Of a stretch of 10,031 bases of DNA, positions 1,654-9,115 are shown in pieces (the first letter of the stretch is position 1; each line of letters begins with the position of its first letter). Under the pieces are notes generated by a model. It was not told the DNA's origin. It saw nothing but the letters and a program-made list of their open reading frames with translations, and did no database searches. The stretch is from the IMG/VR virus record IMGVR_UViG_2663763232_000016. One strand, written 5' to 3'. A program made the position numbers and the translations under genes. This DNA comes from a virus. Taxonomy: Duplodnaviria > Heunggongvirae > Uroviricota > Caudoviricetes.

Positions 1654-1743
1654 TACCTGCACGATTTTCGTGTACCCACCCCCTCGATTTTCGAGCACCT
1701 ACCTGCACGATTTTCGAGTAGGGGGTAGTCGATTTTCGAGCAC
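1654..1743. repeat. Iteron-like array: four direct repeats of core CGATTTTCG(A/T)G, organised as a tandem ~46-bp duplication, followed by an AT-rich tract
   Basis: Core copies start at 1662, 1685, 1708 and 1730 (spacing 23, 23, 22 bp, about two helical turns). Units 1654-1699 and 1700-1745 are near-identical except the centre (CCCACCCCC versus TAGGGGGTA). AT-rich run AATAATAATAAATAACAAT begins at 1744. Confidence 0.6.
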
Positions 1744-2246
1744 AATAATAATAAATAACAATCTCCATAAAAGAACTGATAAGAAAAGTACCTCCAGGTC
1801 GAGAGCACGGAATGACGGTTGGTCATTCTGTTAGTTTTAATAGTGATGCTTCTGCATCGCTCCGCTCTGCAATGGCTGGTCAGCCACTTCAGATATGTTT
1901 GTGGTAAGAAGCTCACCTTTGCTGACGTGAAACAGCCGCGCCATCTCGTGACCTTCTAACCCTCGTTAACACATCGCTACGCTCTGTGACTCGGGTAACC
2001 CGACAGGCTACGCCAGAGAGCTACGCTCTCACTCTGTGTGGAAGCTGCGAACTTGTTCGCCATATGTGGATCGGAGCACGGCGGAGAGGACTGCTTTGCA
2101 TCTGTCCGGTTCACTCCGGGGCGGCGCGGGTTGTCTAACTGACTTCCTCAGCGCCTCTCTACGGCGTTTAAATGGTGTGGGTAACACGATGGTACTGCTA
2201 TAACGACGAGTCCCCGCAGAACGCGTCACAGAACGATCTAGCACTA

Positions 2247-3025: not shown

Positions 3026-3229
3026 ATGAACATCAAATTTCAACAGCACGTTTATCAGGCTCTACTAGCTGAGGCCAAAAGGCAGGACAAGCCCCTGGCA
3101 CGGCTCTGTAATGAAATCTTGGAGACTGCCGCGAACATTTTCGACAACACACCAGACATCAAACCAGCATTAGCCAGCAAGGCGACACTTTACGGAGAAC
3201 AGAATGAGCAAACAGAACCGGGACAGTAA
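3026..3229 (+). CDS. Small DNA-binding protein, ribbon-helix-helix-like (CopG/Arc/ParG-type fold suspected), 67 aa
   Basis: AGGAGG at 3011-3016, 9 nt before ATG 3026. N-terminal short strand (NIKFQQ) followed by two predicted helices (HVYQALLAEAKRQD / PLARLCNEILETA) matches RHH layout. Not confirmed by search. Confidence 0.7.
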   Translation: MNIKFQQHVYQALLAEAKRQDKPLARLCNEILETAANIFDNTPDIKPALASKATLYGEQNEQTEPGQ

Positions 3230-3950
3230 GGATTTTGTAAAACTTGAATACAGCATTCTCGACCTTACCGAGTACAACGGCCTGACCATTAATGGCAACA
3301 TGAAAATTTTGCTATCTCTGGTTTACAGCTATGACAAAACAGGCAGAACTTATTACGAGTCTGTTGGCATGATTGGTAAACGTTGCGGCTGCAAGCCCGA
3401 AGCCGTTCGTAATTTCAGGAACAAGCTTCGTGAAGCGGGAATGATCACTTTTGAGGAAGAGCAGGGGAGAACACACAAAATTTCTCCGGTCGAACTCGAT
3501 CCATCGTTGATGGTTTTTCTTGACGATCATAATTCCACGCAGGTGAGTAATAGAAAAGTGGAAACCGAGGAGAGCGGTAAGAATGAGCAGAAACGTGATG
3601 TGGAATCTTTCGTGGTGGAACCTGCCGCGCCTGTTGCTGGAAAACCAGACGGCCTACCTGTTGTGGATATTCCTGTCGATGCTGATGTACCTGCCAATGA
3701 TGATGCGGTGAACGCTTCTGATAGGTATACCGATGAACAATTAGGCACCAAGCTGAGGCGATGGCGCAATTGGGGACTGGATGAAGAAGCAAAAGCGTTT
3801 TGTCTCTCTCATGGTATCAGCAGCGATGAGGACAGCATGAATCTGTTTATTCAAAATTATCATGTACCCGCACCGGAGTCAGTAGAACAACAGGTTAACG
3901 CCCCAGCAGATGAGCTGCCGCTTGATTATGATGACTCGATCCCTTTCTGA
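3204..3950 (+). CDS. Protein with N-terminal winged-helix-like DNA-binding domain (resembling replisome-organizer / replication-initiator N-domains) and an acidic, low-complexity C-terminal half, 248 aa
   Basis: GGAGA at 3194-3198, 5 nt before ATG 3204; the start overlaps the 3-prime end of the RHH gene by 26 nt. Segment KILLSLVYSYDKTGRTYYESVGMIGKRCGCKPEAVRNFRNKLREAGMITFEE looks like helix-turn-wing. C-terminal half is rich in D/E/P. Confidence 0.8.
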   Translation: MSKQNRDSKDFVKLEYSILDLTEYNGLTINGNMKILLSLVYSYDKTGRTYYESVGMIGKRCGCKPEAVRNFRNKLREAGMITFEEEQGRTHKISPVELDPSLMVFLDDHNSTQVSNRKVETEESGKNEQKRDVESFVVEPAAPVAGKPDGLPVVDIPVDADVPANDDAVNASDRYTDEQLGTKLRRWRNWGLDEEAKAFCLSHGISSDEDSMNLFIQNYHVPAPESVEQQVNAPADELPLDYDDSIPF

Positions 3951-4600: not shown

Positions 4601-4933
4601 ATGAATAACATTGAAGCAATCCGCGCCAGTATCCGGGAAGCAATGACCGCAGGAACAGACGAACCGGAAGATCTGAACAAATCCGCTGAAGAAGCATTGG
4701 CGGAGGCGGTGCAGAGTTACCTGTCCGCTTCGACTGCAACAGCCAGCGAGCCAGCCCCAAAAAGTGGTAAAACCATCAAGGAAAAAGGGATCGCTCTGTG
4801 CCACCAAGCCCAAGGTTATAGCGCTAATCTGCGTCCGGTAAGTCTCATGATGAAGGCAAGTCTTGATGAGCTAACACCTGAACAACGCGCCGCGCTTGAG
4901 CGTCTGGGTTACGATATCAATCAGGGGGTGTGA
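4601..4933 (+). CDS. Hypothetical protein, about 110 aa from ATG 4601; the in-frame TTG at 4505 would add 32 hydrophobic residues
   Basis: AGGAAA at 4585-4590 lies 10 nt before ATG 4601. The TGA stop at 4931-4933 overlaps the ATG of the next gene (TGATG). Alternative longer ORF from TTG 4505 as given in the ORF track. Confidence 0.6.
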   Translation: MNNIEAIRASIREAMTAGTDEPEDLNKSAEEALAEAVQSYLSASTATASEPAPKSGKTIKEKGIALCHQAQGYSANLRPVSLMMKASLDELTPEQRAALERLGYDINQGV

Positions 4934-7678: not shown

Positions 7679-7735
7679 CAACACAACCCGGCATATTCGC
7701 CGGATTATAAAAATTGCATGGAGATACAACAAAAT

Positions 7736-8080
7736 ATGGCATTCGAACATGAAAGCAAAACCCCACAGGATGTATTGGTTTATACCGATAGCCCGATCTT
7801 TCATAAGCGCACCGTGATCTTTGATCTGGCTGCTGATGTGACTTGTGGTGATGTGATTAACCCGACCACTGGCGCGGCATACGTTGCAGCCGATGCTGAT
7901 AACTGTGCTGTAGCTCTGCAAAATCAAATCGCTGGTGATGCCCGTAGCCTGGTCATTTCAGACCGTGGCTGTGTGTTCAATCCATCTGGTCTGGTTGTAG
8001 CGGCTGCTGCAAAAGATGCTGCTTACGCTGCCCTTGTTAAGCAAGGCAACCGCATTGCTGACGCAAACACTGCAATCTAA
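7736..8080 (+). CDS. Putative head decoration protein (lambda gpD-like size and composition), about 114 aa; alternative start ATG 7718
   Basis: ORF from ATG 7718 to TAA 8078-8080; the second ATG at 7736 has GGAGA at 7720-7724 (11-nt spacing) whereas 7718 has no Shine-Dalgarno. Small Ala/Gly-rich protein directly upstream of a capsid-sized gene; segment TTGAAYVAADADNCA resembles lambda D TDGAAVGILAVAADQ. Not confirmed by search. Confidence 0.7.
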   Translation: MAFEHESKTPQDVLVYTDSPIFHKRTVIFDLAADVTCGDVINPTTGAAYVAADADNCAVALQNQIAGDARSLVISDRGCVFNPSGLVVAAAAKDAAYAALVKQGNRIADANTAI

Positions 8081-8098: not shown

Positions 8099-9115
8099 AT
8101 GAAATTAAGTGATTTTACTAACCTTTCCGGTCAGTTTGTGAAGCCAAGCGGCGAGGGGTTCCTTCTGTCCAGCCTGGGGATCTTTACCAGCCGTCCAAGT
8201 GATACGCAAATCATCGCGCTCGACACACTGGAAGATGTGCAGCGTGAAGTGACCAAATCTGTTGCCCGTTATGGTTCTGAAATGTCCGGTCTAAACTTCC
8301 CTAAAGCGGCTAACGTGACTGTTCAGGCTCCACTGCATGTCTACAGCTCAACCATCACCAGCCAGGATTGGCAGGGGAAACGTCAGCCGGGAACAAATCG
8401 CCAGATGACCGCTGAAGATGTAGTTGCTAATCATACCCTGAAGCACTACCTGCAAACCCGCCGTGATGTTGAATATGCCATGGCGCAGAGCCTGCTTCAC
8501 AATACTGTAGAGGCGACACACCTTCGTGAAGGTCCTGATCTGAACTGGCAAACCTTCTGGGGTATTAACCAGCCGTCTGCTGTGGTGAAAACTGGCATCA
8601 GTGCCAACGTTATTACTGAGATGCAGAACGCTGTCACGCTGCTGAAGAAAAATCTGGGTGGCTGGTCTTCCAGCATCAAGCAGGTTTATCTGCTAGCGAG
8701 TCCGAGTCTTTTCACCGCCATTCAAGGCAACCCAACCGCATATCAGGCGGCTCTGTTTGGTGCTACGTCCCGTGACATCATTTTCCCTGACACTTTGGGC
8801 GCATATGATCGATACAACATCGGGCGCGTAACTGTAGTTCAGGTTGACGATCCGCTATACGGCATTGCAGATGGTGAAGGCTACATGCTGGCGACGTTCT
8901 CCAATGTTGTTGAAGGCGACCTTTCACCTTATATGACTTACCAGACTCCGGCGAGCCGTCATGCTGACGTTGCTAATGGTCCGGTTTATCCGTCTTACCA
9001 TTACGTTCTGCGTGATAAGTTCATGAATTATGAGGTGGTCAGCGAGCTATCACAAATTCAGATCCCAATGCGTCCAGACTTCGTTTTGAAAATTACGATG
9101 GATGACGCGGCGTAA
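8099..9115 (+). CDS. Putative major capsid protein (lambda gpE-like / HK97-fold class suggested by size and synteny), 338 aa
   Basis: AAGGAG at 8083-8088, 10 nt before ATG 8099; TAA at 9113-9115. Length close to lambda gpE (341 aa), directly downstream of the decoration-like gene, about 50 percent GC. Family call is from context and size, not from detectable identity to lambda E. Confidence 0.85.
   Translation: MKLSDFTNLSGQFVKPSGEGFLLSSLGIFTSRPSDTQIIALDTLEDVQREVTKSVARYGSEMSGLNFPKAANVTVQAPLHVYSSTITSQDWQGKRQPGTNRQMTAEDVVANHTLKHYLQTRRDVEYAMAQSLLHNTVEATHLREGPDLNWQTFWGINQPSAVVKTGISANVITEMQNAVTLLKKNLGGWSSSIKQVYLLASPSLFTAIQGNPTAYQAALFGATSRDIIFPDTLGAYDRYNIGRVTVVQVDDPLYGIADGEGYMLATFSNVVEGDLSPYMTYQTPASRHADVANGPVYPSYHYVLRDKFMNYEVVSELSQIQIPMRPDFVLKITMDDAA

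Follow-up and report, generated by a model that had tools for sequence, protein, structure and literature searches.

A phased repeat array that matches the N-terminal domain of a winged-helix protein in type is a candidate iteron origin of a family of Enterobacterales mobile elements

What is the function of a short array of direct repeats that lies in a long stretch without annotated genes, 1.5 kb upstream of the gene for a probable DNA-binding protein? We addressed this question for the 10,031-nucleotide viral sequence of IMG/VR record IMGVR_UViG_2663763232_000016, which is referred to as the window throughout. A preliminary description of this DNA had proposed that the repeats and the A+T-rich sequence next to them form a replication origin, with a winged-helix protein encoded at 3204–3950 as the possible partner, or else a centromere-like site or a regulatory site for an RHH protein. 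The array and its flank comprise the following features, where type A is the repeat type of the window.

1662–1672, + strand: repeat 1, CGATTTTCGTG
1675–1684, no strand assigned: C-rich spacer between repeats 1 and 2, CCCACCCCCT, kept in type-A relatives
1685–1695, + strand: repeat 2, CGATTTTCGAG
1708–1718, + strand: repeat 3, CGATTTTCGAG
1720–1729, no strand assigned: G-rich spacer separating repeat 3 from repeat 4, AGGGGGTAGT, paired with its C-rich counterpart when the single strand is folded
1730–1740, + strand: repeat 4, CGATTTTCGAG, adjoining the A+T-rich tract
1744–1792, no strand assigned: A+T-rich tract, 75–78% A+T in 40-nt windows, A-rich on the + strand
1796–1807, no strand assigned: AGGTCGAGAGCA, a variant of the AGGTCAARGGCA motif
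1807–1831, no strand assigned: palindrome directly past the A+T-rich tract, with a 10-bp stem and a 5-nt loop, ACGGAATGAC ggttg GTCATTCTGT

The sequence CGATTTTCG(A/T)G is present in four exact copies on the + strand, starting at 1662, 1685, 1708 and 1730. The start-to-start spacings of 23, 23 and 22 bp bear out the intervals of 22–23 bp given earlier, and no further copy was found in the 10-kb window at one mismatch. The number of copies expected by chance is 0.43, and four were reached in 0 of 200 dinucleotide-preserving shuffles. Tandem Repeats Finder reported a period of 23 with 2.7 copies. All four repeats share a TCGA-N3-TCGA dyad. A generic feature of iteron origins, at least three direct repeats phased with the helix, is present here. 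The array can be read as two units of 45–46 bp, 1654–1699 and 1700–1744, with unlike central spacers. This agrees with the 46-bp tandem duplication suggested in the preliminary description, except that the swap of a C-run for a G-run is not the only divergence, as the first repeat has T in one unit and A in the other and the units differ in length by one base. The swap itself is real and is more than a swap, since ACCCCCT (1678–1684) is the reverse complement of AGGGGGT (1720–1726). The two spacers pair in a single-strand DNA fold with a z score of −2.3, and 2 of 200 shuffles folded equally well.

The tract rich in AAT and AAA that had been noted after the array was found to be real, and it is a candidate DNA-unwinding element. 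The palindrome beyond it had escaped the earlier reading. Scans for other signals gave little. No DnaA box was found within 400 bp of the array, the nearest match to TTATCCACA at one mismatch or fewer being at 2176, and no IHF consensus was found within a few hundred bp. GATC occurs in the stretch scanned near the array only at 1506 and 1523, about 140–155 bp upstream of repeat 1. There was no GC-skew signal around the array at the scale of the window, and the tRNA and Rfam scans of the window returned no match.

From base 54 on, the window is 100% identical to the genome of E. coli TC24, where it falls within an element of ~13.4 kb whose integration site is the thiM TPP riboswitch. The riboswitch is duplicated at both ends of the element (L001 16797–16893 and 30166–30262 in TC24). 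Bases 1–53 match neither TC24 nor AREA_C483, which are otherwise 99.9–100% identical to the window, so that the window derives from a different host or from a variant of the cargo region. The array lies inside a ~2.1-kb stretch without annotated genes (window ~360–2490). The element codes for a tyrosine integrase, a few cargo genes and, downstream of the array, an operon for proteins of 148, 67, 248, 173 and ~110–142 aa (110 aa as annotated in TC24) and a 714-aa tape-measure-like protein. Past a gap downstream of the operon are genes for a lambda-D-like decoration protein (7718–8080) and a lambda-E-like major capsid protein (8099–9115). The latter matched Phage_cap_E and PHROG 29 weakly, and a tblastn search with it at E ≤ 1e-5 found no match in 50,697 phage records.

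Most proteins of the element have no curated family or named function; they gave only sub-threshold Pfam and weak PHROG matches, and none of the 10 proteins tested matched NCBIfam. In profile searches (Pfam, PHROG, NCBIfam), no open reading frame of the element showed a helicase, helicase loader, primase, terminase, ParA or ParB. Since no portal, protease or terminase is recognizable, the element looks like a satellite with shell proteins of its own. The 173-aa neighbor of the 248-aa protein matched no family, nor does its type track the C-terminal type of the latter. A Sie-like or tRNA_anti-like OB-fold cargo protein ends at window position 360. Cargo genes occupy in the window element the place where most relatives have, directly upstream of the gene-free region, a small (183–195 aa) tyrosine recombinase gene on the minus strand (L005 10869–11423, L006 10864–11418, L011 1204–1764, L013 1179–1751, L014 1365–1916 and L018 1777–2364). 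The leader of the 148-aa gene contains a direct repeat, TCCTCGAATAATTCT (2379–2393) and TCCGCGAATAATTCT (2456–2470), 77 bp apart and downstream of promoter-like sites at 2318–2351; it tracks the window type of the 148-aa gene (also in L002 and L008) and not the type of the array.

We compared 18 related loci from Escherichia, Klebsiella, Scandinavium, Citrobacter, Pseudocitrobacter, Yersinia, Edwardsiella and metagenomes; relatives were also found in Enterobacter. The elements are highly mosaic. Those of E. coli are integrated at tRNA-Gly, tRNA-Thr or thiM, and the ones at the two tRNA genes use different integrases. A 13,171-bp metagenome contig ends in the att repeat, which is compatible with an integrated or a circular form. 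Scans with an alignment of the 248-aa family recovered only three loci from the GTDB species genomes and one from IMG/VR. When the 2.1-kb gene-free region was searched by blastn, phages gave no match and plasmids gave a single match, 130 bp long and of no relevance, to an Enterobacter record that is mis-assembled.

The repeat unit was to be sought in related elements, and this search proved informative. The position of the array is kept in all 18 loci. Every relative has 2–4 direct repeats, spaced by 21–25, 32–35 or 44 bp, then an A+T-rich tract equivalent to 1744–1792, and then a short palindrome. The AGGTCAARGGCA motif is kept between the tract and the palindrome in all element types. The palindrome keeps its position as well, its sequence being swapped for other palindromes (GTGAACtggtGTTCAC, TTGAACatgcGTTCAA, ATAGACatgcGTCTAT). 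The repeats themselves fall into about 10 unrelated types.

CGATTTTCGAG (type A): the window, L002, L010, L027, L029 and L028, with diverged forms in L017 and L016
TCATCGGTAAYGGTTAC (type B): L003, L005 and L008
TTTAGCAAAGTTTGTACATG: L006
ACCACTGAAGAAAGGTAAGT (type D): L007
AACCATGYCGGAATTYCAG: L009
CACAGAGAACCCAKGGTRGGGTCT: L011
GTGTCTTCY: L018
GCCATTGGTAAAGAATCTTAAC: L013
GGGTTTACCGGTTATAACAG: L014

Type A extends to distant members. In Yersinia, at 63–66% identity in the N-terminal domain of the 248-aa protein, there are three copies of YSRTTTTCGAG with an A+T tract. A JGI metagenome contig of this type has three direct copies and one inverted copy, and the Scandinavium and Klebsiella members have four perfect copies. 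These arrays bear on the idea that the repeats arose by local duplication and have no function, or else belong to a structured RNA, as the likeness to a 46-bp tandem duplication and the partly conserved, non-coding 2 kb around it might suggest. We regard this as highly improbable. Identical four-copy arrays are found in Escherichia, Klebsiella and Scandinavium elements in spite of diverged flanks, other types hold three or four phased repeats independently, and a permissive Rfam scan of 300–2550 gave no match even at E = 5. Moreover, the repeats are replaced in cassette-like fashion together with a protein domain, which points to DNA–protein recognition.

That domain is the N-terminal part of the 248-aa protein, whose gene divides as follows.

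3204–3518, + strand: N-terminal winged-helix domain, approximately residues 1–105, from profiles and a structure model
3519–3950, + strand: linker and C-terminal part, with the disordered linker …TEESGKNEQK…GKPDGLPVVDIPVD, a small helical C-domain and the tail LDYDDSIPF

The type of the repeat equals the type of this N-terminal domain in 18 of 18 loci, over about 10 types. No other part of the neighborhood is coupled to the repeats in this way. The window, L011 and L013 have C-terminal parts that are 95% identical and three different repeats. The 148-aa proteins of L003, L005, L013 and L014 are 97–99% identical, and that of L011 is 88–91% identical to them, with four repeat types among the five; those of the window, L008 and L009 are 86–91% identical, with three repeat types. 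L008 has intervening DNA and a 148-aa protein of the window type, but another pair of repeat and N-domain. Because the C-terminal part, the 67-aa and 148-aa proteins and the intervening DNA of L008 are all uncoupled from the repeats, the match between repeat and N-domain is not due to linkage. The pattern is that expected of a DNA site and its specific binding domain, which suggests that the winged-helix protein named in the preliminary description is the partner of the array. Since the intervening DNA recombines independently while the pair of repeat and N-domain stays matched, the 1.5 kb between array and gene is no obstacle. A cognate initiator of matching specificity in the same replicon is another generic feature of iteron origins, and the co-variation provides it here.

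The same comparison contradicts the earlier suggestion that the array serves the 67-aa RHH-like protein. RHH proteins often bind tandem repeats, and the gene for this one (3026–3229) adjoins and overlaps that for the 248-aa protein. However, in four independent pairs of elements (the window and L007, L003 and L009, L006 and L011, L013 and L018) the 67-aa proteins are 86–94% identical and the repeats are unrelated, so that binding of the array by this protein is scarcely credible. We also considered that the repeats might be arm sites of an integrase and rejected this reading. The array lies ~4.7 kb away from att, and the recombinases do not predict its type, as L005 and L006 have the same small recombinase and different repeats.

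Several further observations concern the distribution of the repeat types. The genome of Pseudocitrobacter vendiensis contains two elements on two contigs, L007 (type D) and L008 (type B); two specificities in one genome are expected if shared specificity causes incompatibility. Lone repeats of a foreign type are found at the upstream edge of three resident arrays, namely CGATTTTCGAG in L006 (12601–12611), AACCATGCCGGAATTTCAG in L007 (~4880–4908) and CTTCTGCCAGAGGGGAGG in L011 (~3095–3115). They look like scars of cassette replacement by recombination. In Yersinia enterocolitica, L017 has an 8-bp tandem array of about eight copies, TGGTGACT (3774–3845), ~110 bp upstream of its diverged type-A repeats. 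This element is reduced, with the initiator gene and no capsid genes, and adjoins hha/tomB.

We then asked what kind of protein the partner may be. The 248-aa protein is modular: its N-terminal winged helix and its C-terminal part are variable, and the disordered linker between them is conserved. Its 108 homologues cluster into at least nine N-terminal types. It matched no Pfam initiator family above threshold (HTH_36 reached 20.4 bits against a cut-off of 25), and the Pfam domains Phage_rep_O and RepA_N were not detected. NCBIfam gave no match, and hhalign against lambda O was insignificant with a probability of 0.3. At the level of the family, 48–56 of 74 members matched PHROG profiles for replication initiation, O-like or DnaD-like proteins, with a best E value of 2.5e-10, and just 1 of 74 matched a generic HTH profile. 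The structure model has a single winged helix, and a structure search with it returned generic winged helices, the best matches being regulators of the MarR/MgrA type. A winged-helix fold alone cannot tell a regulator from an initiator; sequence profiles can.

The C-terminal tail LDYDDSIPF (3921–3947) resembles the C-terminal motif DDDIPF of E. coli SSB, which docks PriA, DnaG, chi and other proteins (PMC5872125). About 40% of the family, or 41 of 108 homologues under a loose pattern, end in tails like D-[FYH]-D-D-x-IPF. Such tails, including PDFDDDEPF, LDFDDTIPF, DEDDPEIPF and NEIPY, close several otherwise unlike types of C-terminal domain. An SSB-like tail fits an initiator that borrows all of its downstream replication functions.

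The structural matches bring up the question of whether the repeats are operators and the winged-helix protein is a transcription factor acting at a nearby promoter, either of a leftward gene in the relatives or of a non-coding transcript from the A+T tract. Co-variation speaks to the specificity of binding and not to its purpose. A gene of 119–130 aa on the minus strand begins ~70 bp upstream of the repeats in L003, L005, L011, L013 and L018, where the repeats may have a part in promoter control, and many initiators autoregulate through their own iterons. Nevertheless, the window element and its closest relatives lack the minus-strand gene and still have four perfect repeats, and no promoter-like site overlaps 1650–1800. 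In addition, the sequence-profile matches of the family are nearly all to replication initiators, and a pure regulator would leave the layout of A+T tract and palindrome and the SSB-like tail unexplained. We consider it unlikely, on balance, that the repeats are operators.

Two other blocks of the gene-free region are conserved. The first, at window ~944–1215, is 72–92% identical across all element types, while the capsid proteins are just 26–32% identical. Frequent indels and mismatches without 3-base or codon periodicity show that it is not coding, and it had no match in Rfam. Two CCCACA(A/C)AATGTAAAC-like motifs lie in it at a distance of ~70 nt, together with a hairpin whose changes are compensatory; on the + strand there is also a terminator-like CCAGAGG…CTGTTTTAGTTTT. 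The block could be a small RNA of ~200 nt or a protein-binding region.

Between the candidate origin and the promoters of the operon lies the second block (window ~1830–2250), a conserved skeleton in which TGTGTGG, ATGTGRA and GGGGCGGCG (2119–2127) are invariant. Its local hairpins change by compensation, with GGCTTCgatGAAGCC replaced by GACTGCgatGCAGTC in relatives. RNAalifold gave a weak consensus for the block downstream of the array, with a covariation term of −1.37, and a reading as non-coding RNA was set aside on this account. GGGGCGGCG and CCGACAGGCTACG (2000–2012) recall lambda cosN and its left flank. A lambda-like cos was rejected, as local alignment to lambda cos was not above shuffles (25 of 200). 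Exact-pattern scans of IMG/VR hit the same family of elements four times and an unrelated 18-nt sequence once, by chance; no helper phage was among the matches. The block could serve in packaging or in priming, or it could be an RNA.

These blocks raise the possibility that the array is itself a packaging or segregation site, such as pac, a cosB-like terminase-binding array or a centromere. The element has capsid genes and must be packaged, and the invariant GGGGCGGCG lies 380 bp downstream of the array among conserved blocks of the gene-free region. Against this, it is the initiator-like N-domain that the repeats vary with, rather than the capsid genes or the conserved block downstream, the likeness to lambda cos did not exceed that of shuffled controls, and the element encodes no homologue of terminase, ParA or ParB. 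The centromere-like site of the preliminary description likewise found no support, since parS or parC centromeres are recognized by adjoining ParA/ParB or ParM/ParR genes and none is present in the element. We therefore judge a role in packaging or segregation to be very improbable.

Taken together, the strict co-variation, the initiator profiles and the ori-lambda-like order of repeats, A+T tract and palindrome suggest that the element has a vegetative, lambda-style iteron origin of its own, in which the array is where the initiator binds. We put the probability of this reading at roughly 0.7, judging from sequence comparison. We propose that the N-terminal winged helix of the 248-aa protein binds the four CGATTTTCGAG repeats, each with its TCGA-N3-TCGA dyad, and that the spacing of 22–23 bp would set them on roughly one face of the helix. 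The resulting nucleoprotein complex may destabilize the adjoining A+T tract (1744–1792, 75–78% A+T). The conserved linker and the C-terminal part with its SSB-like tail (…DYDDSIPF) might then recruit replication proteins of the host or of a helper, the element having no helicase or primase of its own. This recruitment step is entirely conjectural because neither helicase, loader nor primase is encoded by the element.

A broader picture can be offered tentatively, and we hold it to be possible rather than probable. The elements may constitute undescribed ~13-kb, capsid-encoding, satellite-like islands of Enterobacterales, whose initiator mimics the SSB tail (…D-Y/F-D-D-x-IPF) to recruit the host replisome and whose cassette of origin and N-domain has been swapped at least about ten times under selection. 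Mimicry of the SSB tail would explain the absence of helicase, loader and primase genes. Swapping of the cassette would allow an element to avoid incompatibility with a co-resident one, or to escape origin-directed nucleases of a helper phage as in PLE and ICP1.

The origin architecture itself is ordinary; the element family is uncharacterized. The array and its initiator would give a widespread mobile element with mostly unnamed proteins its first functional anchor. Of added interest are the many swapped specificity cassettes and the SSB-tail-like C-terminus. About 10 orthogonal DNA–protein specificities on a common scaffold would form a natural set for studying how winged-helix initiators read DNA, and the pairs of origin and initiator could be useful for predicting the incompatibility of co-resident elements and as orthogonal replicon parts. 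Mimicry of the SSB tail, if true, would let a mobile element borrow the host primosome by compact means.

Among known systems, the iteron plasmids pSC101, R6K, RK2, F and P1 resemble the present locus in their phased direct repeats, winged-helix Rep protein and adjoining A+T-rich unwinding element. DnaA boxes and IHF sites are usual in the origins of such plasmids, and the Rep proteins each contain two winged-helix domains. Here, in contrast, there is neither a DnaA box (at one mismatch or fewer) nor an IHF consensus within a few hundred bp, and a single winged helix is modelled. DnaA boxes in or near iteron origins are common and not universal. The PICI/SaPI elements are likewise phage-related chromosomal islands with their own initiator and with iterons adjoining an A+T-rich melting region (PMC6092414). 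In PICI origins, two sets of iterons flank the A+T-rich region immediately 3' of a pri-rep gene of the primase/helicase type (PMC6092414), whereas here a single set lies on one side, upstream of the operon, and neither primase nor helicase is encoded.

The PLE of Vibrio cholerae is also an integrated element of the satellite type with iterons in a non-coding region (PMC8263062). In its RepA the DNA-binding domain varies together with the ori iterons and the C-terminal domain, conserved across all PLEs, does not, a modularity that has been confirmed experimentally (PMC8263062). The 248-aa family is alike in that its N-terminal DNA-binding domain co-varies with the iterons and its C-terminal part assorts independently through recombination. 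Unlike PLE, which has a RepA_N domain and three ~30-bp semi-palindromic iterons of two specificity types, the family here has about 10 types and no RepA_N domain detected by Pfam, and neither the host clade nor the remainder of the element is related.

The layout equals that of ori-lambda (J02459 39034–39190), with four 18-bp iterons spaced by 20, 24 and 23 bp, an A-rich tract of 78% A+T and then a palindrome (PMC7466680). Both loci have four initiator-binding or putative initiator-binding repeats ~20–24 bp apart with internal dyads, followed by an A-rich tract of ~45 bp and a palindrome, in the same order and polarity, and neither has a DnaA box. In lambda O, too, specificity is set by a DNA-binding domain at the N-terminus, and the C-terminal part is separate. 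The two systems differ in that the lambda origin lies inside gene O, whereas the array (1662–1740) is 1.5 kb upstream of the initiator gene (3204–3950) and separated from it by a conserved non-coding block and two further genes. Furthermore, the 248-aa protein is not detectably a member of Phage_rep_O, with only weak PHROG 'O-like' matches, and there is no P-like helicase loader or helicase. By these comparisons the array probably works like an iteron origin of the lambda and PLE kind, and by their defining features it stands outside the lambda O, RepA_N and PICI origin families.
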